Shown here: in pieces, positions 6,744 through 40,741 of the stretch
Layout: the number at the start of each line of letters is the position of its first letter
Position numbering within the stretch: the stretch's first letter is position 1
Source of the DNA: a virus
Taxonomy: Duplodnaviria; Heunggongvirae; Uroviricota; Caudoviricetes
Length of the DNA: 40,741 nucleotides
Direction: 5' to 3' (one strand)
Virus record (IMG/VR): IMGVR_UViG_2711768062_000003
Coordinates: 1 to 40,741 of that record
The notes under the pieces: generated by a model
Databases searched by the model: none
The model's input: the letters and a program-made list of their open reading frames with translations, nothing else
What the model was told of the DNA's origin: nothing
Translations under genes and position numbers: made by a program

Positions 6744-6984
6744 GATGTTCTCCAGTTTTTCTGAGTGAACTTCGCTGGTGGTGCCGCGGCGCTGATCTTC
6801 ACGGTTGAGCGTTTTAACTCTGCAATTCACCACCGCGAAGCTCACTCTGTGCTTTGCCCTTGTCGCCAGGCTGGCGGAACGTTTCAAACCTACTGCGCGT
6901 TAATCTCACCACCTCATTCCGGTCTTCGTATGCCCCGGACGGCTTCTTCGTGGGCGTCCTGCTTTGGTGGTTGTGTTGATGGAG

Positions 6985-7030
6985 TAATTAAACACAATGT
7001 TTATTTGCGTGTCAACATAATGAGTGTTTT
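6985..7030. promoter_or_regulatory. Operator-like inverted repeats (candidate OL) related to the PR/PRM operators
   Basis: AAACACAATGTTT and AACATAATGAGTGTT share AACA(T) ... (A)TGTT half-sites with the palindromes at 9034-9072. Confidence 0.3.
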
Positions 7031-7127
7031 TATATAAACAAAAAGTTTAGTTGGTTGCGCTCGTTGGCACGAGTAGTATGTTTTGTGGTCTATTTTGTGG
7101 TTATAAAAAAATCGATGAGGGTGAGTT

Positions 7128-7334
7128 ATGGATCGTGACGAACTGGAAGAAGACCGCGCAGCGTTTATTGCGGGGGAGATTGGTGGCGCAGTTGTCAGTC
7201 TGATAGCTAACGGGATTGTGATCAGCCGCGATGCGATTGTGGATAGTCTAGAGGCTAAGCGCAGGGTAGTGGGAAACGTCATTCACAAGTGGGTATTGCG
7301 GGATGCGGTTGCTATGGTGAGAAAAGGGCAATAA
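7128..7334 (+). CDS. Hypothetical small protein
   Basis: 68-aa ORF; GAGGG SD before ATG; candidate sigma70 promoter TTGGTT-17-TAGTAT upstream; ends at a bidirectional terminator. Confidence 0.5.
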   Translation: MDRDELEEDRAAFIAGEIGGAVVSLIANGIVISRDAIVDSLEAKRRVVGNVIHKWVLRDAVAMVRKGQ

Positions 7335-7370
7335 AAAACCCAGTTCGGTAACTGGGTTATTGCTTTATTC
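7331..7370. terminator. Rho-independent terminator (bidirectional; strongest for the minus-strand operon)
   Basis: AAAAAACCCAGTT-cggta-AACTGGGTT stem-loop flanked by A-run on one side and T-rich run on the other, between convergent genes. Confidence 0.7.
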
Positions 7371-7823
7371 AACAGATGATGGGGGGGTCGGTGCTTTCTT
7401 AAAGATCGACCACTGAGAAATGTAGGTCAGCAACCTTGAGCTTAACTCGAGTTCTTTTCGTAATATTTCGTCATAACGTTTTTTTGCTGCTTGCATGGTC
7501 GCATCACTAGCGTGATTGTCATCCATAATGATCTTTAGCCTTTTCTTTTCTCGGCTTGAGCATATTGTAAATAACAGACCTGTAAATGACATTCCACCAA
7601 AATCCTTTAACGTTTTGATTACAAAAAGAAGAATCAAAGACAGAAAAGGAACAGATCTGTAGGCCCAATCACGAAACTCACCGTCAGGAAAGAAGATAGG
7701 AATAGCATCTGTAGCATAACCACATATGAGGGAGACAATTAGAAAAGGTAGTCCATTTTTAGCTACATTTTTAACGTTATCGTTAGCCATGATTTTTTCC
7801 CGAGAACGATTTCGAGTCAACAT
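7365..7823 (-). CDS. Small membrane protein (about 3 predicted TM helices), accessory operon gene 3
   Basis: ORF of 152 aa (probable start MANDNV, 141 aa); hydrophobic stretches LPFLIVSLICGYATDAIPIFF, SVPFLSLILLFVI, MSFTGLLFTICS; AT-rich. Confidence 0.6.
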   Translation of the reverse strand: MLTRNRSREKIMANDNVKNVAKNGLPFLIVSLICGYATDAIPIFFPDGEFRDWAYRSVPFLSLILLFVIKTLKDFGGMSFTGLLFTICSSREKKRLKIIMDDNHASDATMQAAKKRYDEILRKELELSSRLLTYISQWSIFKKAPTPPSSVE

Positions 7824-8166
7824 GTAACTTTTGTGTTTTGACTACATAATACGCAAATCCAATCTTAACTAACCAATAAGCTACTGGTATGAGTGCTGCG
7901 TAAAGAGGGATATAGTACATAACCTTACCTCCTGTTAACCACACTATAACACCTAGCATCACTATTAGCGCGACAGAAAATGCTTTCAGCCCAACACAGC
8001 TATCAGGATGTGAAACACTGTTCCTTAGCAACAATACCCTGGATTCATCAAGTGTGTAAGGAATATCGCCAACATGATTTTCGATTTTTGGGAAGGTCTC
8101 AAATACTTCAACCCGATCAATCGAAATAATTGAGCTTGATTGATGATCTAAGCAAACTGCAGCCAC
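7783..8166 (-). CDS. Small membrane protein (2 predicted C-terminal TM helices), accessory operon gene 2
   Basis: 127-aa ORF; hydrophobic stretches AFSVALIVMLGVIVWL and YYIPLYAALIPVAYWLVKIGFAYYVV; start 3 nt from upstream stop; AT-rich. Confidence 0.6.
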   Translation of the reverse strand: MAAVCLDHQSSSIISIDRVEVFETFPKIENHVGDIPYTLDESRVLLLRNSVSHPDSCVGLKAFSVALIVMLGVIVWLTGGKVMYYIPLYAALIPVAYWLVKIGFAYYVVKTQKLHVDSKSFSGKNHG

Positions 8167-8168
8167 TG

Positions 8169-8492
8169 TTATCCCTCTCGAACCTTTAGTGATACTCGGT
8201 TAGCAGCAAATGTGGCAATGAAACCACATTCTACACATATAACAGGGAATGCCCATATACCTCGGCCAGCTGAATGAGGTAGAGGAAGGGTAATTATTGC
8301 AGGATAGTCTTGACTATCTTCTCGTGGAGGAACTCCCCAAAGCGTATGCTTACAAAGCGGACAGGCCATCTCGCCATGTTTTTCTTCGAGGCGTTGAAAA
8401 TAATCTCGAAATTCTTGTCTTGATATTGATAGCGTCAATGCTGTTGTATTGACACTTTCCTGACTTTTTTCTTCTTCAACCTGTTCGCCCAT
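8169..8492 (-). CDS. Zn-ribbon protein with acidic N-terminus, accessory operon gene 1
   Basis: ATG at 8492 (GAGAG SD); CPLCKH ... VICVECGF gives CxxC ... CxxC; candidate promoter TTCACT-17-TATATT upstream; AT-rich. Confidence 0.6.
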   Translation of the reverse strand: MGEQVEEEKSQESVNTTALTLSISRQEFRDYFQRLEEKHGEMACPLCKHTLWGVPPREDSQDYPAIITLPLPHSAGRGIWAFPVICVECGFIATFAANRVSLKVREG

Positions 8493-8603
8493 CTCAGCTC
8501 TCAATATAATGATAATTAACTGGTAAGTGAATTTTGCATATCGTTAAGATGTATCCCATTGGTACAGAAACATCTGAGGGGTAAGTAGCTTTTAACTACC
8601 GTG

Positions 8604-8999
8604 CTACTCACCATCCCCCTTAATCCGCCGTCCCATGTACTTGGCGTACAGTTCATCGAGTTCTTTCAACCGTAGAGATACGATCCGCAACATGTTCTGT
8701 TGTTCTTCTTCGTTTGGGAGTTGATTATAGAGTTCCAACAGTCTCCGTTCGTCGTGTCTCAAACCGTCCTTAGCATCCACGTCCTGACCTAGAACCCACT
8801 CAAGACTTACGCCTAGCGCATCGGCAAGTTTTATTGCTGAGCTTTTTCCTATCGCTCCTCTGACAAACCAGTTGTTGACTGATTGTGCGCTCACACCACA
8901 GATTCTCGCTATATCCGCTTTGGATATGCGCTTCTTCTCGATGATTTCATTTAACCGCCGAACCTGCGGGTTATCTGTTTGGTGTGTGTTTTTTCTCAT
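8604..8999 (-). CDS. CI-like phage repressor (XRE-family HTH, no S24 peptidase domain)
   Basis: 131-aa ORF; HTH signature ISKADIARICGVSAQSVNNWF; divergent from cro-like gene across a palindrome-rich intergenic region; almost leaderless start. Confidence 0.8.
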   Translation of the reverse strand: MRKNTHQTDNPQVRRLNEIIEKKRISKADIARICGVSAQSVNNWFVRGAIGKSSAIKLADALGVSLEWVLGQDVDAKDGLRHDERRLLELYNQLPNEEEQQNMLRIVSLRLKELDELYAKYMGRRIKGDGE

Positions 9000-9007
9000 A
9001 TATCAAG

Positions 9008-9078
9008 ATTCTAAACTAAAAGTTTATCGCCTCAACATTCATAATGTTGACTTGAACATAAACATAATGTTTAATTTG
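9008..9078. promoter_or_regulatory. Immunity switch region: divergent PRM-like and PR-like promoters with palindromic operators
   Basis: Palindromes AACATTcatAATGTT (9034-9048) and AAACATaATGTTT (9060-9072); PR candidate -35 TTGACT (9047-9052) / -10 TTTAAT (9070-9075); PRM candidate on minus strand -35 TTGAGG / -10 TAGAAT 8 nt before the repressor ATG. Confidence 0.55.
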
Positions 9079-9102
9079 GTTCGTTATTACTTGGAGCCAA
9101 AT

Positions 9103-9336
9103 ATGAAAGCACTTGATAAAGCAATATGCATCGTAGGGGGTGCAACCCGTTTAGCAGAAAAGCTCAATGTATCCCCAATGACGGTCAGTCACTGGCGTCA
9201 CCGTGACAATGGATTCGTACCGGCTAACCGTGTCATTCCTATTTTCAATGCTACAGGTGTAACTCCACATGAGTTACGCCCTGATTTGTACCTCAACCCT
9301 ACGGATGGATTACCGGCTCAGGAAGCGAGGGCATAA
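9103..9336 (+). CDS. Cro-like regulator (YdaS/Cro family HTH)
   Basis: 77 aa, MKALDKAICIVGGATRLAEKLNVSPMTVSHWR pattern; GGAG SD; the ORF track shows a longer frame but this ATG has the SD. Confidence 0.7.
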   Translation: MKALDKAICIVGGATRLAEKLNVSPMTVSHWRHRDNGFVPANRVIPIFNATGVTPHELRPDLYLNPTDGLPAQEARA

Positions 9337-9338
9337 CC

Positions 9339-9878
9339 ATGCAGTCACTATCACTTCATCAAAATAGCGGATATCAAACGGCTGCGATGATAAATCGCAA
9401 TCAACCTGTCTCGGTAGATAAACATGACCAGATCCGCGATGCCGTTCGTGCGTGGGCGGGTGTAGATGGTCAGGATGTCGTTTCTGCTCTGATCATCGAA
9501 GAGTACCAGGCTCAAGGGGGAGACGAGATCACTTTCCCTGATGACCTCAGCCGACAGCGTCAGAAGCTTTTCCGCTTTCTGGATAACCATTTCAACAGCG
9601 AACGGTACCGCGAAAACGTTCGCCAGCTGACTCCGGCAATCCTCGCTGTCCTGCCGATTGAATACCGCAATCGTCTGCTACCAGAAGACAACGTAATGGC
9701 TCGTCTGGCAAGGCTGGAGAAGGAAACCAGCGAAGCGAAGATTGCTGTCGCAATGGATGCGCCACGTCATCAGAAGCTGAAAGAGTTGAGCGAGGGGATC
9801 GTGGAGATGTATCGCGTTGACCCTGGGTTAACCGGTCCGTTGATGGAAATGGTGCAGATTATGCTGGGGGCTATATGA
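9339..9878 (+). CDS. YdaT-like / CII-like early regulatory protein
   Basis: 179-aa ORF directly after cro-like gene as in Rac ydaS-ydaT; family assignment from recalled pattern only. Confidence 0.5.
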   Translation: MQSLSLHQNSGYQTAAMINRNQPVSVDKHDQIRDAVRAWAGVDGQDVVSALIIEEYQAQGGDEITFPDDLSRQRQKLFRFLDNHFNSERYRENVRQLTPAILAVLPIEYRNRLLPEDNVMARLARLEKETSEAKIAVAMDAPRHQKLKELSEGIVEMYRVDPGLTGPLMEMVQIMLGAI

Positions 9879-30216: not shown

Positions 30217-32196
30217 ATGGCTGATACTATCCGTGATTACCTGGTCTCTCTGGGGTTCGATATCGACGGCGCGGGCCAGGCGAAGTTTGAAGCCACGCTC
30301 AAAGGTGTGGCCGCGAACGTCGTAAAACTGGGGGCCATAGTTGAGTCGACGGGGCTGGCCATTGTGGGCTTCACCGCCTCGATCGCCAGCGGCCTTGATA
30401 AACTCTACTGGGCCGCGGAACGCACCGGGGCATCGGTCAACGGCATCAAGGCGCTTGGCTATGCTGCCTCACAAACCGGCTCCAGCGCCGAGGCTGCCCA
30501 GAACTCACTGGAGAGCCTGGCGCGCTTCATGCGCAGCAATCCCGGCGCCGAAGGCTTCCTGAACCGCCTGGGGGTGCAGACCCGGGACGCTTCCGGACAG
30601 ATGCGCGACATGTCGGCTATCTTCACCGGCGTCGGCCAGCGCCTCAGCAGCATGCCCTATTATCGAGCCAATCAGTTCGCGCAGATGCTGGGCATTGACG
30701 AAAACACGCTGATGGCAATGCGGCGAGGAATGTCCGGCTTCACGGCTGAATACCAGTCGATGATGCAGAAGACAGGCTTCGATGCTGACAGGGCCGCGCA
30801 GCAGTCCAACAAGTTCATGACCTCAATGCGCAACTTCGTTTCGCTACTGGGGATCTTGCGCGATAAGGTTGGCTCGAATCTGGCCGGCGGCCTGAGCGGC
30901 ACGCTGAACAATCTCAGCAAGCAGATGCTGGAGAACTGGCCGAAGATAGAGGGCGTGGTCACGAAGATAGTGAAGGGGGTGCTCTTTGCTGCTGATGTCA
31001 TTACCCAGATGGCGTGGCGCGTCTCGCAGGCGGTAGGCGGCCTGATTGAGTGGTTTAAAAAGCTGCCGCCGGATATACAGCAGCTAATCATGCTGGTGTC
31101 CGGGCTGGTTTCGGCGTGGCAGCTGCTTAACGCTGAGTTCCTCAAATCGCCGATAGGTATCGTAATCGCGCTAGGCTCGGCGCTGTTCGCGCTTTACGAC
31201 GACTACAAAACCTGGAAAGAAGGCGGTCAAAGCCTGCTGCCCTGGGATAAATGGGAGCCAGAAATAGAGGCTGCCCTGAAATCGCTTGGCGAGCTGCGGG
31301 ATTCTGTGAAGGCGATAGGGGTTGAAATCGCAAAGCTGCTCAATATCAACCTCAAAAACTGGACCCTTAAAGGCGACATCGACAACCTCACTAAGCAGTT
31401 CGGTGAGTTTGGCAAGATGATTAAGATGATTGGCGACCTGATAAACGCCATCAACGAGGGGCGTTGGAAAGATGCTTATGCGATCGGCAAGAACCTGCTG
31501 GCACAAGGGCAAGGCCAGGATGCTCTACCTGCAGTATCTGACAGCGCTAACAATACTGCTGACTGGATAGAGGGCAAGACGGGGTTCGACCCGCGAAGCA
31601 TCGGGAAAACAATAAACGGGTGGATTTTCGGCAAAGAAGAGGGCGGCTCAGACCAGCAGGAGAGCGGCCCGGGCAAGACGCTGGCCGACCGTAACAACAA
31701 TCCTGGCAACCTGCGCCCCGTCGGCGGCACCGGTTTTACCTCTCATCAGACGCCGCTTGATGGTTGGATGGCAATGGCCAGGCAGATCCGTCTTTATTTC
31801 ACCGGAAAAAGCGCGGCCGCCGGGTATGAAAAACTCCAGTCAATATGGGACATCATCCACAAATACGCACCTGCCAGCGACAACAACGACCCCGAGGCCT
31901 ATTCGAACTTCGTAGCCAATATGATGGGCGTGGGCGCTAAGGACACGCTGAACCTGAGCGACCCGCAGCAGTTCAGCAACCTTCTGCAGGCCATGTCCAG
32001 GAAGGAAGGTTACGGTCAGTGGAATTCCCCATTGGCCAGCGTTGCCGCTACGCAGGCAGCCGCGCAGATCAGCCAGGAAACGAACATCAATATTTACGGC
32101 GCGAGCGACCCGGCATCCACTGGCCGGGAGGTTGCCGATCGTCAATCCGGCGTTAATTCCCGTCTTACTCAGCAGCTACAACCGAGGGTCTACTGA
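30217..32196 (+). CDS. Tail tape measure protein
   Basis: 659-aa ORF; Ala/Gly/Met/Gln-rich composition typical of tape measure; follows chaperone/frameshift pair. Confidence 0.8.
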   Translation: MADTIRDYLVSLGFDIDGAGQAKFEATLKGVAANVVKLGAIVESTGLAIVGFTASIASGLDKLYWAAERTGASVNGIKALGYAASQTGSSAEAAQNSLESLARFMRSNPGAEGFLNRLGVQTRDASGQMRDMSAIFTGVGQRLSSMPYYRANQFAQMLGIDENTLMAMRRGMSGFTAEYQSMMQKTGFDADRAAQQSNKFMTSMRNFVSLLGILRDKVGSNLAGGLSGTLNNLSKQMLENWPKIEGVVTKIVKGVLFAADVITQMAWRVSQAVGGLIEWFKKLPPDIQQLIMLVSGLVSAWQLLNAEFLKSPIGIVIALGSALFALYDDYKTWKEGGQSLLPWDKWEPEIEAALKSLGELRDSVKAIGVEIAKLLNINLKNWTLKGDIDNLTKQFGEFGKMIKMIGDLINAINEGRWKDAYAIGKNLLAQGQGQDALPAVSDSANNTADWIEGKTGFDPRSIGKTINGWIFGKEEGGSDQQESGPGKTLADRNNNPGNLRPVGGTGFTSHQTPLDGWMAMARQIRLYFTGKSAAAGYEKLQSIWDIIHKYAPASDNNDPEAYSNFVANMMGVGAKDTLNLSDPQQFSNLLQAMSRKEGYGQWNSPLASVAATQAAAQISQETNINIYGASDPASTGREVADRQSGVNSRLTQQLQPRVY

Positions 32197-33079: not shown

Positions 33080-34150
33080 ATGACTATTAACTGGAATCGC
33101 CATTTTGAACTGCGGCTTCTGAACGACAAGGGGAATGGCATATCCCTGTCGGACTTTAAAGTTACCTTCGCAATCGACTGGTTTAACTCGATGTGGCCAC
33201 GTGTGGCGACGCTTAAAATTTACAACCTCAAGCGTGACACAATCACCCGGATTACGGGGGATGAGTTTTCTCGCATTACCATCATAGCCGGTTATAACGG
33301 CCTGGCGCCGACGGTTACTGAAAGCGAGGTTGGGCAGGTTACCGAGATTTCATCTGAGCAAACCGGCCAGACGCGCGGGCAAAATTACGGAGTCATTTTT
33401 GATGGGGAGATTCGTTTTACGATAACCGGGCGCGATAATCCTACCGATATTTTTACGCTAATTCAGTCGGTAGATGGTCATAAGGCGTTCAACGAAGCCG
33501 TATCGTCCGGCAGCCTGGCGGCAGGATATAAGCTTGCCGACGTGCATACACTTCTGATGAAGGACTTTTCGCCTTACGGCATCACCCAGGGCATCACCGG
33601 GCAGTTCCCTGACAGGGTGATGCCACGCGGTCGCGTCTTCTTCGGCGCAACGCGCGACTACATGAGCAACCTAGCGGCGCAGTGCGAGGCTAACTGGCAA
33701 TTTGTCGACGGCCAGCTGCAAATGGTGCCTGAGAATAAATATCTCCATGAAGCGATCGTGCTTAACACCAAAACTGGCCTGGTCGGTATGCCTCAGCAAA
33801 CCATGGGGGCAGGCGTTAATGTGCGCTGTCTCATTAATCCAAACATTCGGGTTAACGGGCTTATTCAGTTGAACCAGGACTCGGTGTATCGCTCGCAATT
33901 ACCGAACGATGAGATCCAAAGATCACAGGCAAGGATTACTGAGGCAAATGATAATGGTAATCTTAGTACAGGCAGCGCGACGCTTGCGCAGCCCGCCAGT
34001 GTGGCAACTGATGGCGTTTACATAGTTCAGTCAATCAGCTACACCGGCGATACGAGAGGGAATCCGTGGTATATGGATCTCATGTGTATGGCCAGAGGGG
34101 CGCGTGATTTACAATCGAATACGGCCCTACAGCGAACGGCTCCACAATGA
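33080..34150 (+). CDS. Baseplate hub-like protein (Mu gpP / late control D-like position)
   Basis: 356-aa ORF after tape measure; size and position match Mu gp44. Confidence 0.55.
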   Translation: MTINWNRHFELRLLNDKGNGISLSDFKVTFAIDWFNSMWPRVATLKIYNLKRDTITRITGDEFSRITIIAGYNGLAPTVTESEVGQVTEISSEQTGQTRGQNYGVIFDGEIRFTITGRDNPTDIFTLIQSVDGHKAFNEAVSSGSLAAGYKLADVHTLLMKDFSPYGITQGITGQFPDRVMPRGRVFFGATRDYMSNLAAQCEANWQFVDGQLQMVPENKYLHEAIVLNTKTGLVGMPQQTMGAGVNVRCLINPNIRVNGLIQLNQDSVYRSQLPNDEIQRSQARITEANDNGNLSTGSATLAQPASVATDGVYIVQSISYTGDTRGNPWYMDLMCMARGARDLQSNTALQRTAPQ

Positions 34151-34503
34151 AAAAAATACTTTTTTTGGTTTCTTTAGCATTCGTCAGTTTTTCTTCTACA
34201 GCGGCAAACACCGCTTATATGAAGTGTGGTCCCTTTACTTTCTCAACCTCATCAAGCAACGACGGATATCCGAGGATAAACGGAGCAAAGCCTGATAGTC
34301 AGAAGGTGACATTCCTCAAAAAAGAGGGAGATTATGACAATATTAAAATGCAATGGATTGTCATGAATGAGAATTCTGGGCAGCGCTATGGTCTTGATTA
34401 TATAAAACGCAATGGGAGAGGGATACTCAATGCCGAGGCCATCAGAATGAACATGAATGAACCTCGAGTGTTTGGAACTTACGACTGCGTGAAGGCTAAG
34501 TGA
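34147..34503 (+). CDS. Small secreted protein (cleavable signal peptide, 2 Cys), AT-rich moron
   Basis: 118 aa; MKKILFLVSLAFVSFSSTA-ANT signal peptide; ATGA overlap with baseplate gene stop; AT-rich unlike flanks. Confidence 0.55.
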   Translation: MKKILFLVSLAFVSFSSTAANTAYMKCGPFTFSTSSSNDGYPRINGAKPDSQKVTFLKKEGDYDNIKMQWIVMNENSGQRYGLDYIKRNGRGILNAEAIRMNMNEPRVFGTYDCVKAK

Positions 34504-34508
34504 TTTAA

Positions 34509-34535
34509 TAAAGGCGCCGGAACTACCGGCGCTCA
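34509..34535 (-). terminator. Rho-independent terminator (minus strand; weaker on plus)
   Basis: GGCGCCGG-aacta-CCGGCGC hairpin; T-rich tail (TTTATTAAA) on minus strand. Confidence 0.55.
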
Positions 34536-34536
34536 G

Positions 34537-34887
34537 TTACTCGTCTTTAAAACTTATAATTTTGTACTGCTCCAGTACTTCTGAAAGCTCCTTTGATGTC
34601 AGATTTTGTATTTCGATCGTACCTTTTTCAGTGGTTACCGTTATTTTTTTTGATGATCTGGTCTGTAACCATTTTCTCGCTATCGATGCAATGGCGATAC
34701 AAGCTGGTGATGATGTGATAACGGTAATAGATATTTCGAGAATTGTGCCAATAGCGCCAGGAGAATCACCCGTTCTGACTCTTTTACTTACTACATAGTC
34801 ATTAGCGGGTATGTTATCCTGGATTACAGGAAGTAACTCTTTCCAAATAGCTGGAGTAAATTTTATGGTTGTTTCTGATTTTGGCAT
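34537..34887 (-). CDS. Hypothetical protein (AT-rich moron, antisense to tail genes)
   Basis: 116-aa ORF with its own terminator; weak SD; overlaps a possible 53-aa plus-strand ORF (34865..35026), so one of the two may be spurious. Confidence 0.4.
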   Translation of the reverse strand: MPKSETTIKFTPAIWKELLPVIQDNIPANDYVVSKRVRTGDSPGAIGTILEISITVITSSPACIAIASIARKWLQTRSSKKITVTTEKGTIEIQNLTSKELSEVLEQYKIISFKDE

Positions 34888-35066
34888 AAAGGTTTCAGGC
34901 CCCTATCGAGAGAAGCTAAAAATTGCCTACCGGCTTTTCCTTAGCAGCCTGTATCTTGCTACAAATCACGACGTTACCGTGGTTCTAAGCAAAACCTATA
35001 TTAAGAGCTGCAATGAAGATAAATAGCACGCATTAACTCACCCTCAAATCCTGACATTTGATCAGT

Positions 35067-35090
35067 AACCCGCCTCGGCGGGTTTTTTAT
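35067..35090 (+). terminator. Rho-independent terminator
   Basis: CCCGC-ctcg-GCGGG followed by TTTTTT, 16 nt upstream of the spike gene. Confidence 0.6.
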
Positions 35091-35105
35091 TACCTGGAGA
35101 AAGCT

Positions 35106-35759
35106 ATGCCAGTATCAGCCCGCGCGCAGGACGGCAACGAATCGCAGACTCTTGAGGCGCACCGCCACGCCATTTTCGGCAGCCTGCGCGTGGCTTTGCC
35201 GGGGATCATCCAGTCCTTTGACCCTGAAACAGTGACATGCACCGTGCAGCCAGCCATCTACGGTCAGCGGCTCAGCGACGATGGCGCTCTGGTTTCTGAG
35301 GAGATACCGATTTTGCCAGACGTTCCAGTGGTGTTCCCCCGCGGCGGTGGCTGCACGTTAACCTTCCCGGTAAAGGCCGGTGACGAGTGCCTCCTGGTCT
35401 TCTCCGATCGCTGCATCGACTTCTGGTGGCAGAGCGGCGGGGTGCAGGAACCGGTTGACCCGCGCCAGCATGACCTGAGTGATGCGTTTGCCATTGTGGG
35501 TCCGCAGTCGCAGGCGCAGAAAATCAGCAGCATCAGTACCAGTGCGGTTGAACTGCGCAGTGACGACGGTGGAACAAAACTGAGCCTTAACCCTTCATCC
35601 GGAGCGATAACGGGAACCGCGCCGGGAGGCTTCAACCTTAACGGTCTGAAAATTCTGCCTGACGGCCGCCTGCAGCTGGTGGATGGCTCCATGGTTGATA
35701 AGCATACGCATGGCGGCGTGGAAGTCGGCGGCAGCAATACGAAACCACTGGGAGGGTAA
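35106..35759 (+). CDS. Baseplate central spike protein (gpV / Mu gp45-like)
   Basis: ATG with GGAGA SD; 217 aa; size/position as baseplate spike; C-terminal Gly-rich tail. Confidence 0.55.
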   Translation: MPVSARAQDGNESQTLEAHRHAIFGSLRVALPGIIQSFDPETVTCTVQPAIYGQRLSDDGALVSEEIPILPDVPVVFPRGGGCTLTFPVKAGDECLLVFSDRCIDFWWQSGGVQEPVDPRQHDLSDAFAIVGPQSQAQKISSISTSAVELRSDDGGTKLSLNPSSGAITGTAPGGFNLNGLKILPDGRLQLVDGSMVDKHTHGGVEVGGSNTKPLGG

Positions 35760-37315: not shown

Positions 37316-37992
37316 GTAGGTACACGGATCTAATCACTAACTACCACGCCACTAAGCCGAAATACCTCGATCACATCGATCTTAGTACCCGTCCCCTGAT
37401 TGATATCACGTCAGCCACAAGGGGCCTGGTGAGTGCGTTTGACATTGATACGGCTGTTGGCGTGCAACTCGATATTCTCGGACTCTGGATTGGACGTAGC
37501 CGTATAGTCAGCCAGCCCATTAGTGGCGTTTATTTCAGTTGGGACACGGAGGGGCTCGGATATGACCAGGGCGTATGGCAGGGGCCATATGATCCTAACT
37601 CCGGCTATACGACGCTTAGCGATGATACCTATCGCACTATTCTGAAAGCAAAAATCGCTATTAACAACTGGGACGGGCGTAACGACTCGCTTCCGGACAT
37701 TCTTGACACTGCCACAGTGGGTTCGGGCCTGAAGATGCAGATCGTCGACAATCAGGACATGACGATATCGGTCTGGGTATTTCCCGAGACTGATATTTCT
37801 GATGTGTCTCTCGAACTGATCGCCGCTATCAAACAGGGCTATCTCACCGTTAAAGCCGCTGGCGTCTGGGCCGGTGATGTTGAAATGCCTTCGGTTGAAA
37901 CACCGTCCGAAGGAACAAAATTCTTTGGATTTGACATGGATAACGAATACATCGCCGGTTTTGATGACGGCGCATGGGGGAGATTACTTTAA
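37312..37992 (+). CDS. Tail protein (gpI / Mu gp48 / e14 YmfQ-like position)
   Basis: 226-aa ORF; ATGA overlap with J-like gene; precedes tail fibre gene. Confidence 0.55.
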   Translation: MSRYTDLITNYHATKPKYLDHIDLSTRPLIDITSATRGLVSAFDIDTAVGVQLDILGLWIGRSRIVSQPISGVYFSWDTEGLGYDQGVWQGPYDPNSGYTTLSDDTYRTILKAKIAINNWDGRNDSLPDILDTATVGSGLKMQIVDNQDMTISVWVFPETDISDVSLELIAAIKQGYLTVKAAGVWAGDVEMPSVETPSEGTKFFGFDMDNEYIAGFDDGAWGRLL

Positions 37993-38636
37993 TGGCTGGA
38001 ACTAATGATTTTAAAGCGTTTGCGACAGATGCTAATGCAAATGTTACCTCGCAGGAGGAATGGGAGACGCTAACCGCACTGAAGAAAGGATTCTCCTCGG
38101 GTAAAGCATCCAGCGCACAGGTCAGTAAAGCGCTGCGCCAACCGTCGACGATGGCGGCTGTACTGGGGCAGTTTATCGCGAACGCCGAACTGGACGCGCT
38201 CGATGATGGTGACGTTGATGGACTGGTGGCAAAGCTGGCGACAGCGATTACCACAAACCTTGGTTTGGGAGAAGCGGCAAAACGGGATGTGGGTAACGGG
38301 CAAAACCAAATTCCTGATATGTCAGCGTGGGAGTGTGGGGGAGATACAACGACGGGATGGAGGCGAAGCCCGGATGGTTATATTGAACAATGGGGGCTAA
38401 CTGAGGCCACAACAAATGAAGTTTTGATTAATTTTCCTATCCCATTTCCGACAGCCGTCATTTCTATTAATGAACATGACCAGGCTCCTGTGGCAGGGAA
38501 AATGGCAGTATGGCAATTCTATAAATTGACTAACTCAAATGTCATAGCAGAGAACCTGGGATCTCTTGATAAAGGAAATCCATCCTTCAATGTTCCAACT
38601 ATCGCTGGTTGCCGCTGGTTTGCTACAGGAAGATAA
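37992..38636 (+). CDS. Tail fibre protein (short; constant N-terminus plus variable C-terminal part)
   Basis: 214 aa from ATG overlapping upstream stop; followed by tfa; counterpart variable segment on the opposite strand. Confidence 0.65.
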   Translation: MAGTNDFKAFATDANANVTSQEEWETLTALKKGFSSGKASSAQVSKALRQPSTMAAVLGQFIANAELDALDDGDVDGLVAKLATAITTNLGLGEAAKRDVGNGQNQIPDMSAWECGGDTTTGWRRSPDGYIEQWGLTEATTNEVLINFPIPFPTAVISINEHDQAPVAGKMAVWQFYKLTNSNVIAENLGSLDKGNPSFNVPTIAGCRWFATGR

Positions 38637-38637
38637 A

Positions 38638-39078
38638 ATGAGTAAATATCTTTACGATGCAAAAACTAATATGTTTTACCCATTTACTCTGGAAAGTCAG
38701 TATAAGGAGTCTGGGTTATGGCCTCATAATGGAGTTGAAGTTGATGAGGATATATTTATTAAGTACCTGTCCCCACCTCCAGGGAAAGTGAGAGTTGCGG
38801 GTGATGATGGCTATCCTGCATGGGATGACGTACCGCCGCTAACTCATGAAGAACAACAGTCAGAAGCGGAACGAAAAAAACAGGCACTCATAAATCGAGT
38901 TAATGAATATATTAACAGTAAGCAGTGGCCAGGAAAGGCTGCTATTGGTCGTCTGAAAGGTGAGGAACTGGCGCAATATAATTTGTGGCTGGATTATCTG
39001 GACGCACTGGAACTGGTTGATACCTCCAGTGCTCCAAATATTGAATGGCCTACGCCTCCGGCAGTTCAGGCCAGATGA
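38638..39078 (+). CDS. Tail fibre assembly protein (Tfa)
   Basis: 146 aa; C-terminal Tfa signature DTSSAPNIEWPTPP. Confidence 0.8.
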   Translation: MSKYLYDAKTNMFYPFTLESQYKESGLWPHNGVEVDEDIFIKYLSPPPGKVRVAGDDGYPAWDDVPPLTHEEQQSEAERKKQALINRVNEYINSKQWPGKAAIGRLKGEELAQYNLWLDYLDALELVDTSSAPNIEWPTPPAVQAR

Positions 39079-39652
39079 CATCCGGCGCGGTACTGGTATC
39101 TGTTACCGTCACCGCGTCAATGTAATCTAGCACACTGTTAAGTCGGGTGGTCTCTGCTTGCGTCAGCTTCCGCCCGGCCTGCAATTTCAGCTGAATCAGA
39201 CTGATGGAGGCCATAGCAGCATCAATCAGCGACTGGCGCTGTGCTTCTGCCACGTCTACTGCAGCGCTATGCTGTGCCTCAGTATCCGTCACCCATTTCT
39301 CACCATCCCATTTATCGTATGGCGTTAACGGGGCGATAGTGGTTGTATTTTCGGGATAGTCGCCTAGTGCTGTGATTTCTTTGGCATCTCCCGTTTCGGT
39401 GTTATAGACGATTTCACCGCGATGGTCTGACACATATTCCCATGATTTTAAATCCACAGAACGGCAAATTGTATAACCAGCCTTATATGTACCAGGACCG
39501 TCTAAACAGGAATATGCTGGAATACCGACACCCACTGCAAGATATTCAGTTGATTCAGAAATATATTCCCGAGTTTCACCATCATAGTTATAGACGGTAA
39601 TATTCCCCGCCTTCGTGGCAATAAGCTCGCTATTTAATACGGCATTATCCAT
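39050..39652 (-). CDS. Alternative tail fibre assembly protein (Tfa-prime, inverted orientation)
   Basis: 200 aa; Tfa signatures (DHRGEIVYNTETG ... DTSTAPDVIWPELP); convergent with and overlapping tfa. Confidence 0.8.
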   Translation of the reverse strand: MDNAVLNSELIATKAGNITVYNYDGETREYISESTEYLAVGVGIPAYSCLDGPGTYKAGYTICRSVDLKSWEYVSDHRGEIVYNTETGDAKEITALGDYPENTTTIAPLTPYDKWDGEKWVTDTEAQHSAAVDVAEAQRQSLIDAAMASISLIQLKLQAGRKLTQAETTRLNSVLDYIDAVTVTDTSTAPDVIWPELPEA

Positions 39653-40140
39653 TATGCAGCCCTCACGATAAAGTTAAATGCGATATTTCGTGGACGATTC
39701 TCTGATGCTGTTGGGATCTGTCTGGAGGCATCAAATTCAATCTGGCTATAAATCCCGTCGCTTGAGGTGATATTATTGATTTGCTGTTTGAGATACTTTC
39801 CCGCAAGATCAAAAACACCGGTACCGACAGAAAAAAGGCCATTAATATTTATCCCAAAATTACCTGTGATATTTCGAATTGCATCTCCCTGCGCGCTCAT
39901 TAACGCACGTCCGCTATCTACCCCGCGCCCATCATCCCAGCCTCGTAAAAACTCACCACGTAAATCTGGCAATTTATTTGTCGGGTAAGCCTTTGCCAGT
40001 TTCGGGTATTCCTCAGCAGAAAAAGGCGCACCGTTGCACTTAAGCCATCCCGTTGGTGGCGTTTCTGAAGGCCACGGAACAGGCACGCCAACAGGTAATG
40101 CAGAGCCTTCTCCCAAACCAACCTTTTTTATAACCATCAA
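39652..40140 (-). CDS. Alternative tail fibre variable C-terminal segment (lacks its own N-terminus; expressed only after inversion)
   Basis: 162-aa ORF, frame open upstream to the recombination site next to the invertase gene; stop overlaps Tfa-prime start. Confidence 0.6.
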   Translation of the reverse strand: MMVIKKVGLGEGSALPVGVPVPWPSETPPTGWLKCNGAPFSAEEYPKLAKAYPTNKLPDLRGEFLRGWDDGRGVDSGRALMSAQGDAIRNITGNFGININGLFSVGTGVFDLAGKYLKQQINNITSSDGIYSQIEFDASRQIPTASENRPRNIAFNFIVRAA

Positions 40141-40161
40141 AAATCTGGTGATGCTTCGCCG

Positions 40162-40187
40162 TTTCTCCTGTTTTCATAACAGGAGAA
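40162..40187. other. Candidate invertase recombination site (hix/gix-like 26-bp imperfect palindrome)
   Basis: TTTCTCCTGTTTTCATAACAGGAGAA: 12-bp half-sites TTCTCCTGTT(T/A)T in inverted orientation, 6 nt upstream of invertase ATG. Confidence 0.45.
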
Positions 40188-40192
40188 ATCCC

Positions 40193-40741
40193 ATGATTTA
40201 CGGTTATGCCCGAGTATCAACAAACCACCAGGACACTGAATTGCAACTAACGGCGCTCAAGTCAGCGGGTTGTGAGAAAATTTTTGAAGAGCATGCCAGC
40301 GGGAGGAAATCGAATCGGCCGGTTCTAAAACGGCTGATCACCACTATGCAGCCGGGGGATGAACTGGTGGTCTGGAAGCTGGACAGGATAGGCCGCAACG
40401 TTCTGCATGCGCTGTTGATGTTCCAGCAGTTACAGGAAAAGGATATCAACTTCCGCAGTATTACCGATGGCGTGGATCTCAAAACAGCCAGCGGCCGCTA
40501 TAACTTTCGTAACATCCTTTCCGCAGCACAATATGAATCTGATCTTAATAGCGAACGTACCTTAGCAGGGCTGGCCGTAGCCAGGGCAAAAGGGCGAGTT
40601 GGTGGTCGCAGGCCTAAGTTCACGGATGAGCAATGGCGGGAAATGGGGGAGCGGATGGCAACCGGTGAATCACGACAAAGCGTATCAAAAACGTATGGAG
40701 TAGGGCTCTCAACTCTGTATAAAAAGTTTCCAGCTAGCTGA
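40193..40741 (+). CDS. Serine DNA invertase (Gin/Pin/Hin/Cin family)
   Basis: 182 aa; strong collinear match to Gin from memory (MIYGYARVSTNHQD ... VVWKLDRIGRN ... INFRSITDGVDL ... RTLAGLAVARAKGRVGGRRPKF ... LSTLYKKFPA). Confidence 0.9.
   Translation: MIYGYARVSTNHQDTELQLTALKSAGCEKIFEEHASGRKSNRPVLKRLITTMQPGDELVVWKLDRIGRNVLHALLMFQQLQEKDINFRSITDGVDLKTASGRYNFRNILSAAQYESDLNSERTLAGLAVARAKGRVGGRRPKFTDEQWREMGERMATGESRQSVSKTYGVGLSTLYKKFPAS

Follow-up and report, generated by a model that had tools for sequence, protein, structure and literature searches.

A two-part AT-rich island that separates the baseplate hub gene from the spike gene in a temperate enterobacterial myovirus: a lineage-conserved exported-protein gene and a swappable EACC1-like cassette

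Here we describe a small island in the tail module of a viral DNA sequence of 40,741 nucleotides (nt; IMG/VR record IMGVR_UViG_2711768062_000003; this whole stretch is called the window below). The island, at 34147-35100, lies between the baseplate hub gene and the membrane-puncturing spike gene and carries a gene for an exported protein of 118 amino acids (aa), a minus-strand gene for an EACC1-like protein of 116 aa and a plus-strand gene for a protein of 53 aa. The window is that of a lambdoid-regulated temperate myovirus of Escherichia coli, with an integrase gene at one end and a serine invertase gene at the other, and encodes a CI-like repressor, O and P replication proteins, the antiterminator Q, a lysis cassette and a contractile tail of the E217/Pam3 type. 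The lysis cassette is complete (class II holin, lysozyme and Rz/Rz1) and is located outside the island. In the tail module, nucleotide identity to phages derived from Klebsiella prophages, to Salmonella phage SEN34 (Brunovirus) and to Yersinia phage YP3 is about 75-77%. Out of 5,426 complete E. coli genomes, 4 contain the island and its junctions with 99.8-100% identity. In the prophage of E. coli COL60J the late region matches the window, including the hub-spike junction (L001/L010 in our set of loci), which is identical.

An earlier note, made from the sequence alone, had described about 0.9 kb of AT-rich DNA between a hub-like and a spike-like gene, and this was borne out: the GC content of 34147-35100 is 40.7%, against 53.4% for the whole window and 54.2% for the tail module, which places the island among the lowest 1.4% of 954-nt segments. 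The upstream boundary is the hub gene (33080-34150, plus strand, 356 aa), identified by the profiles phrog_196 (baseplate hub, 3.8e-83) and Pfam E217_GP41 (4e-6), and the downstream boundary is the spike gene (35106-35759, plus strand, 217 aa from the ATG at 35106), identified by the N-terminal spike domain PF18352 (1.4e-43) and by PGAP. The exported-protein gene (34147-34503, plus strand, GC 0.41) begins with an ATG that overlaps the hub stop codon (ATGA). The EACC1-like gene (34537-34887, minus strand) is antisense to the tail operon and is followed by its own terminator, a minus-strand hairpin at 34532-34514 with a 7-base-pair (bp) GC stem and then CTTTATTAAA. The 53-aa gene (34865-35026, plus strand) starts at an internal ATG (34865) of a 71-aa open reading frame (ORF) at 34811-35026, with a GGAG ribosome-binding site 9 nt upstream. 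Between its stop codon and the spike gene we found a conserved 20-nt element, ATCCTGAYATTTGATCAGTA (35048-35067, plus strand), and a strong intrinsic terminator (35067-35092, plus strand; hairpin 35067-35084) that consists of a 7-bp stem followed by TTTTATT and lies 14 nt upstream of the spike start. The signal-peptide protein with two cysteines, the minus-strand ORF with a terminator of its own and the strong terminator just before the spike gene had all been proposed in the earlier note and agree with these results. We hold this anatomy with high confidence. As detailed below, the island is made of two parts, a lineage-conserved exported-protein gene and a swappable two-gene cassette.

The homology search that the earlier note had suggested for the minus-strand protein assigned it to a family which that note had not recognised. 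The protein matches Pfam PF19953 (EACC1) at E 1.1e-6 with a score of 29.1 bits, which exceeds the gathering score (23.6), and the match covers residues 37-106 on profile positions 26-104 of 107. Among 24 family members, 10 match PF19953 at E<0.01, the best of them with 36.9 bits (3.9e-9), and PGAP names the identical protein WP_053271602.1 EACC1. EACC1 was defined as the small, unchanging member of a two-gene system; the other gene codes for a caspase with variable sensor or effector domains fused to it (PMC7159879). The EACC1 protein contains one hydrophobic or transmembrane (TM) helix with a central patch of small residues and short alpha+beta extensions (Kaur et al. 2020, eLife, PMC7159879), and is an autoinhibited monomer whose C-terminal fragment, once freed by the caspase, forms membrane pores (Evans et al. 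2025, bioRxiv 10.1101/2025.11.14.688446). A putative caspase cleavage site, Asp49 of the Ktedonobacter racemifer protein, was placed by AlphaFold modelling (10.1101/2025.11.14.688446).

The protein encoded in the window resembles this description in several respects. It falls in the size range of about 115-125 aa of the PF19953 proteins of the EACC1-caspase system, and has a single hydrophobic helix at residues 60-76 (SSPACIAIASI; S59-S60-P61-A62-C63-x-A65-x-A67-S68, with C63 and A67 invariant), in which Ser, Ala and Cys take the place of Gly as small residues. The helix has alpha+beta flanks, as in the canonical proteins, although the order of elements (beta-alpha-beta, loop, beta-alpha-beta-beta-alpha) comes from an AF2 model of low confidence. 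As in the canonical system, an Asp lies in the loop between the N-terminal beta-alpha-beta and the helix-bearing C-terminal part: besides Met1, this residue, Asp41 (codon 34765-34767, minus strand), is the sole invariant one across homologues down to 26% identity, and it precedes the hydrophobic segment. From its position in the alignments Asp41 is a candidate proteolytic activation site. The most conserved regions of the protein are the hydrophobic helix and the C-terminal part.

The EACC1-like gene is under strong purifying selection, with a ratio of nonsynonymous to synonymous substitution rates (dN/dS) of 0.06-0.18. In two strains (ES7 and NCTC11023; L031 and L032) a 1-nt deletion in the T8/A8 homopolymer at 34644-34651, which encodes Lys80-Lys81, leads to an 81-aa truncation (WP_145958853.1). 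This deletion may reflect slippage or phase variation that inactivates a toxic gene, or it may be a homopolymer sequencing error. The purifying selection seen across lineages is not outweighed by these truncations. When the EACC1-like protein was compared by tblastn with 50,697 phage records no match was obtained, and a scan of species-representative genomes, run with patterns from homologues at least 41% identical, gave only one further locus; a broader alignment holds no usable conserved stretch. The window's own subgroup of EACC1-like genes is therefore rare in species-representative genomes.

The 53-aa ORF, which the earlier note had regarded as possible, is a genuine conserved gene. It is intact in six lineages with a dN/dS of 0.05-0.14, its variable columns are distributed over codon positions 1/2/3 as 11/6/31, and its frame is the sole one open in all lineages. 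The protein is annotated in some E. coli genomes as WP_016243572.1. The gene stands head-to-head with the EACC1-like gene, and the 5' coding ends of the two overlap by 23 nt (34865-34887), or by 41 nt in one lineage. A homologous small ORF was found upstream of every EACC1-like gene examined, including those of Klebsiella, Serratia, Erwiniaceae and Pantoea loci, where the EACC1-like protein shares only 26-29% identity with that of the window, and also at 4 loci outside the set from which the profile was built (E 1e-23 to 1e-31). The 53-aa gene is an obligate partner of the EACC1-like gene.

We also observed that the N-termini of the two head-to-head proteins are alike (TIKFTPAIWKELL at 34831-34869, minus strand, and GIKVSGPYREKLK at 34883-34921, plus strand) and that both look beta-alpha-beta. 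The two proteins have a common IK(F/V)...EKL/KEL pattern; hhalign gives the pair only 15% probability over 21 columns. This hints, short of proof, that the partner is derived from the N-terminal autoinhibitory part of EACC1 or mimics it.

The promoter- and terminator-bounded layout attributed to the island by the earlier note was borne out for the terminators and not confirmed for the promoters. By number alone the terminators do not exceed chance (2 found by scanning, 1.2 expected); relatives keep both hairpins. In Citrobacter the stem of the minus-strand terminator shows a compensatory change, from GCGCCGG/CCGGCGC to GTGCCGG/CCGGCAC, and the plus-strand terminator, which ends the transcript of the 53-aa gene, is present in every cassette of the baseplate slot, the position before the spike described below.

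The 20-nt element contains a GATC site and a short hairpin or palindrome, and is predicted to be hairpin 1 of a two-hairpin 3' end. It occurs once in the window, where 0 matches are expected. Exact copies are found in 7 distinct EACC1-like loci (L015, L016, L018-L021 and L001/L010), some of which encode proteins only 26-29% identical, indicating conservation at the DNA level. Its 18-nt core is also present in L027 and L029, and one-base variants in L002, L011-L014 and L017. In all, the element is found, exact or as a one-base variant, in every baseplate-slot cassette examined, and it is missing from the relatives with other cargo (L003-L009), from the immunity-region version (L022) and from L030. 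A role as promoter or binding site for integration host factor (IHF) was considered and rejected, as inspection by eye gave no consistent -10/-35 or IHF consensus across lineages. An Rfam scan of 34000-35300 gave no family match.

Out of 12 genomic contexts of the EACC1-like cassette, 10 are the baseplate slot, where the gene is antisense to tail genes, one is in an unrelated phage and one is downstream of cI. In L020 the cassette is placed after the spike gene rather than before it, still within the baseplate slot. The gene of the cI-adjacent homologue, P0063 (L022-L025; 36.9 bits to PF19953), shares the strand of cI and follows it directly, in metagenomic contigs of lambdoid phages. At this locus (L022, 5001-5941) cI is recognised by its HTH_3 and Peptidase_S24 domains and the same small divergent ORF is present. 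On the 3' side of P0063 lie a gene for a 134-aa protein with a hydrophobic N-terminus and then a terminator, upstream of gene N. The variety of contexts indicates that the cassette moves as a unit into places typical of lysogen-expressed genes. In lambda, rexAB sits directly downstream of cI, and genes in that position, like antisense morons, are typically expressed in lysogens. The EACC1-caspase system has a gene for a caspase-superfamily peptidase adjacent on the 3' side of EACC1. In all 12 contexts no caspase or other peptidase gene adjoins the EACC1-like gene, whose neighbours are baseplate genes or cI.

All relatives have AT-rich DNA (GC 0.38-0.44) from the exported-protein gene to the spike, and almost every one of them carries a different gene there, on either strand; 8 relatives have cargo unrelated to the cassette. 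Phage RCIP0034 encodes a DUF4236 protein in this slot, ST405-OXA48phi1.2 a Zn-ribbon/TM/tRNA_anti-like protein, and SEN34, Mulock, vB_EcoM-683R1, YP3 and ST16-OXA48phi5.2 proteins of uncharacterised function. Among the Klebsiella phages, we noted a minus-strand Zn-ribbon/tRNA_anti-like (OB-fold) protein of 222 aa (L003, 3809-4477) and a minus-strand DUF4236 protein of 105 aa (L009, 2810-3127), both of them devoid of a PADLOC match. Scans with PADLOC-DB v2 and NCBIfam gave nothing useful for the island proteins or for the cargo of relatives. A moron, in the sense attributed to Juhala and co-workers in 2000, is said to be an extra gene with its own promoter and terminator at a junction, present in some and missing from other close relatives. 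The earlier note had read the whole island as typical of a moron. As to presence and absence, this holds for the EACC1-like/53-aa cassette, in whose place relatives carry other cargo, and fails for the 118-aa gene, which is present in all 8 relatives. The moron-like hotspot is the slot between the exported-protein gene and the spike, not the whole island.

Among the findings named in that note as arguing against its view were homologous genes carried here by all related phages as structural components, and disruption of the reading frames in close relatives. Conservation was indeed found for the 118-aa gene, whose product has the features of an exported, disulfide-bonded protein rather than of a structural component. 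Frame disruption was found in the EACC1-like gene, in 2 of the 4 near-identical copies, next to the purifying selection that the gene shows across lineages.

The N-terminus of the 118-aa protein combines a positive n-region (MKK) with a hydrophobic core, and S-T-A precedes the mature part; we propose from these features a Sec-type signal peptide of about 19-20 aa that would be cleaved. Over 44 homologues Cys27, Cys114 and 7 other residues are invariant, and the N-terminus is variable and signal-peptide-like. The structure prediction called for in the earlier note gave a confident model for this protein and, for the EACC1-like one, a model of low confidence with no fold match. The AF2 model of the 118-aa protein is all-beta and confident (pLDDT 87 overall and >90 in the mature part, with low values for residues 1-20), suggesting a small periplasmic beta-barrel closed by a Cys27-Cys114 bond. 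The protein belongs to phrog_3443 (3e-43), and by tblastn its gene was found in 20 phage records (Klebsiella, Salmonella, Yersinia, Citrobacter and E. coli phages). In 8 out of 8 relatives whose junction was read the homologue lies directly 3' of the hub gene, often with overlapping or abutting stop and start codons. Because it is present after the hub in all of them, the exported-protein gene is not an inserted moron. It is low in GC in every relative (0.39-0.48, against 0.50-0.57 for its neighbours), and its product diverges faster (35-56% identity) than the hub (53-63%) and the spike (57-76%). Being exported and disulfide-bonded, the protein is unlikely to be a virion component.

Searches of BFVD and the Protein Data Bank (PDB) with the 118-aa protein gave nothing specific, and matches to nanobodies (E about 0.003) were treated as spurious. 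Like small periplasmic inhibitors and immunity proteins (PliC/MliC, immunity proteins of type VI secretion systems) and avidin- or lipocalin-like barrels, it has a Sec signal, a Cys pair and a domain of about 95 aa modelled as an up-and-down beta-barrel. It differs from them in that no relationship at the sequence level was found, and it does not fall in the PliC/MliC sequence families. The exported protein would act in the periplasm of infected cells, perhaps by blocking or inhibiting a target. The idea that it forms a fixed pair with EACC1 was discarded: the L020 cassette adjoins an unrelated gene, and the exported protein co-occurs with many other cargos.

Taken as a whole, the island may be a lineage-wide accessory region of SEN34/Brunovirus-like temperate myoviruses that comprises two independent units, the second of which would abort infection by other phages; we give this reading slightly less than an even chance. 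Unit A would be a late gene whose translation is coupled to that of the hub gene; its product, a Sec-exported and disulfide-closed beta-barrel, would reach the periplasm of the infected cell and could block or inhibit a target there, giving protection, for instance, from superinfection or from the phage's own tail. Unit B would consist of the EACC1-like gene with its own terminator, the 53-aa partner gene, the 20-nt element and the strong terminator. Our tentative reading of this cassette, which we rate a shade below an even bet, is that of a lysogen-expressed membrane-permeabilising module for exclusion or abortive infection.

According to this scheme, the late operon would be silent in the lysogen and the cassette would be transcribed from its own promoters, the EACC1-like protein being held as an autoinhibited monomer. 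Infection by another phage would be the trigger that releases the C-terminal part, composed of the hydrophobic helix and the beta-hairpin, either because a protease encoded elsewhere cuts after Asp41 or because the 53-aa partner is lost or titrated. The freed C-terminal part would then oligomerise into a membrane pore, as in canonical EACC1, and the infection would be aborted. Lambdoid Q-modified RNA polymerase reads through intrinsic terminators. During the phage's own lytic growth, Q-antiterminated late transcription would accordingly pass both terminators and run antisense across the EACC1-like gene and sense for the partner; the late transcript would collide with the EACC1-like transcript and pair against it, and the toxin would therefore be silenced while the partner is made. 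Cleavage activation and pore formation have been shown for the EACC1-caspase system and are proposed here by analogy.

Several results weigh against this reading. The PF19953 match is modest (29 bits) and restricted to residues 37-106, the AF2 model of the EACC1-like protein has a pLDDT of 64, and a Foldseek search of PDB with this model returned nothing significant. The correspondence of Asp41 to the canonical Asp49 site is putative only. No caspase-like domain was detected in the window ORFs scanned or in the PGAP annotation of the COL60J prophage, and no PADLOC-DB v2 model was matched by either island protein or by 7 cargo proteins of relatives. The 3 promoter-like sites found are no excess over the 2.2 expected by chance, and none is convincingly placed upstream of either cassette gene. 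The EACC1-like gene is truncated in 2 of the 4 near-identical E. coli copies. We infer both the expression of the cassette in lysogens and the role of the 53-aa protein, which might be an inhibitor, an activator, a sensor or an independent toxin. As to unit A, the fold of the 118-aa protein is generic and implies no particular function.

A more specific proposal is that the cassette represents an undescribed phage form of EACC1, in which the caspase-sensor gene has been replaced by the head-to-head 53-aa gene to give a compact exclusion or abortive-infection pair. Its pore might be gated by the partner alone, independently of any protease, or by a protease acting in trans, from the host (for example the effector-less caspases of E. 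coli) or from the invading phage. This proposal is possible but doubtful. Compared with the EACC1-caspase system, the cassette differs by having a divergent, 5'-overlapping partner of about 50 aa instead of an adjacent caspase or peptidase gene, and by its occurrence in temperate enterobacterial phages rather than in actinobacterial or cyanobacterial chromosomes; canonical EACC1 systems are found mostly in actinobacteria and multicellular bacteria and sporadically in proteobacteria (PMC7159879). An effector-less caspase that defends E. coli was reported in a 2025 preprint (10.1101/2025.11.14.688446); that such caspases act in trans on orphan EACC1 proteins is speculation on our part. This protein already bears the EACC1 name through automatic annotation, and accessory genes are a familiar feature of tail modules. 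Within the literature searched we met no account of an EACC1 subfamily that is carried by phages without the protease and always comes with a small head-to-head partner gene and a conserved 3' element.

An alternative that we consider unlikely is that the cassette is a toxin-antitoxin, or addiction, module, in which the EACC1-like protein is the toxin, the 53-aa protein and/or antisense transcripts are the antitoxin, and the prophage or the cassette is stabilised rather than the host defended. The strict co-inheritance of the two genes fits this idea, as do the inactivation of the toxin gene in two strains and a nucleotide sequence upstream of the EACC1-like start that is more conserved than the gene itself. 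Furthermore, the 5' overlap of 23-41 nt forces the two mRNAs to pair in antisense in the region of their start codons, a feature of type I systems. The likeness to symE/symR and tisB/istR-1 lies in a toxin-candidate start covered by an opposite-strand transcript that ends in a strong terminator. The differences are that the opposite transcript encodes a conserved protein, that the candidate toxin is a 116-aa EACC1 and that no Rfam family was matched. The antitoxin of type I systems is a non-coding antisense RNA, and a pure antisense-RNA antitoxin can be discarded here because the small gene is clearly protein-coding; an additional effect at the RNA level may nevertheless exist. An addiction module also overlaps with the abortive-infection reading, because many such modules are themselves abortive-infection systems.

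It is quite unlikely that the EACC1 assignment results from chance similarity through the hydrophobic helix and that the minus-strand protein is an unrelated small membrane protein. The modest score, the partial coverage, the 14 out of 24 homologues that fall short of E 0.01 against PF19953 and the lack of structural corroboration point in that direction. On the other hand, the score exceeds the curated threshold and the best member reaches 36.9 bits, the match runs past the helix into the C-terminal beta-hairpin and helix, and PGAP independently gives the EACC1 name. The size, the order of secondary-structure elements and the Asp in the loop before the helix also agree with the published description of EACC1.

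That the protein is instead an anti-defence decoy, a non-toxic EACC1 mimic that soaks up a host caspase or poisons a host EACC1 pore, appears very unlikely. Such a decoy would account for an orphan EACC1 homologue in a phage genome devoid of the protease and for an invariant Asp at the potential caspase site, and caspase-based defences do exist in E. coli, one of them effector-less. Canonical EACC1, however, is only sporadic in proteobacteria (PMC7159879). The position antisense to the late operon, and in the cI operon elsewhere, fits expression in the lysogen rather than during infection, and the helix and C-terminal part are the best conserved regions, as expected of an active effector. Least probable of all, and hardly to be retained, is an accessory lysis or envelope function in virion release or for the tail (a holin/antiholin-like pair with the exported protein): small, putatively membrane-active proteins lie beside an exported one, and the position upstream of the spike (of the sheath-initiator gene in L020) persists at 26-29% protein identity, but all the genes needed for lysis are found in another part of the prophage, the EACC1-like gene runs antisense to late transcription, most relatives lack the cassette and carry unrelated cargo in the slot, and the cassette is also found beside cI in an unrelated lambdoid phage.

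Read as an exclusion or abortive-infection module, the cassette can be compared with lambda RexA/RexB, likewise a two-gene prophage module thought to act at the membrane, whose position is occupied by the P0063 version (L022-L025). The two differ in that no sequence similarity was seen, the cassette proteins are much smaller and the cassette of the window belongs to the tail module instead of the immunity region. It also resembles the tail-region morons (lambda lom and those of HK97/HK022), cor and T5 llp, which are AT-rich, terminator-bounded and variable extra genes among late genes with exported or membrane products. In the present island, by contrast, the exported protein is constant in presence and the promoter is only putative. 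No similarity to Lom, Cor or Llp came to light, and profile scans of the island proteins gave no match to their families.

A protease-less phage EACC1 with a tiny partner would offer a natural test of whether the pore can be gated by other means or in trans, and the cassette, of about 0.55 kb, would extend the list of prophage-encoded exclusion systems. The accessory-gene hotspot of SEN34-like myoviruses, from the exported-protein gene to the spike, can be mined for defence and counter-defence genes. The analysis also draws attention to a lineage-conserved protein, modelled as a periplasmic beta-barrel, that would be made together with baseplate proteins. With regard to the latter, the tape-measure proteins of some relatives (L002, 1689-3704; L027, 8765-10417) carry an SLT lytic-transglycosylase domain (PGAP, Pfam), and the tape-measure protein of the window (30217-32196) gives only a weak PhageMin_Tail match. 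This difference may bear on the interaction target of the exported periplasmic protein.

The sole other region of the window that is equally AT-rich lies at about 6.8-9.4 kb and adjoins the repressor. Within 6811-9445 the GC content falls to 0.39, and three small minus-strand ORFs, on the same strand as the repressor, are found downstream of the repressor gene (8604-8999) at 7365-7823, 7783-8166 and 8169-8504; none has a Pfam family. At the corresponding position E. coli COL60J has a different, hypothetical protein of 467 aa. The region resembles a further hotspot for accessory or defence genes, in a rexAB-like position. Finally, the tail-fibre end of the window (37974-40741) comprises a gp53-like fibre gene, the serine invertase gene (40034-40741; Resolvase and HTH_7 domains) and two tail-fibre-assembly genes that overlap in opposed orientation (38566-39078, plus strand; 39050-39652, minus strand), an arrangement that resembles an invertible host-range switch of the Gin/Cin type.

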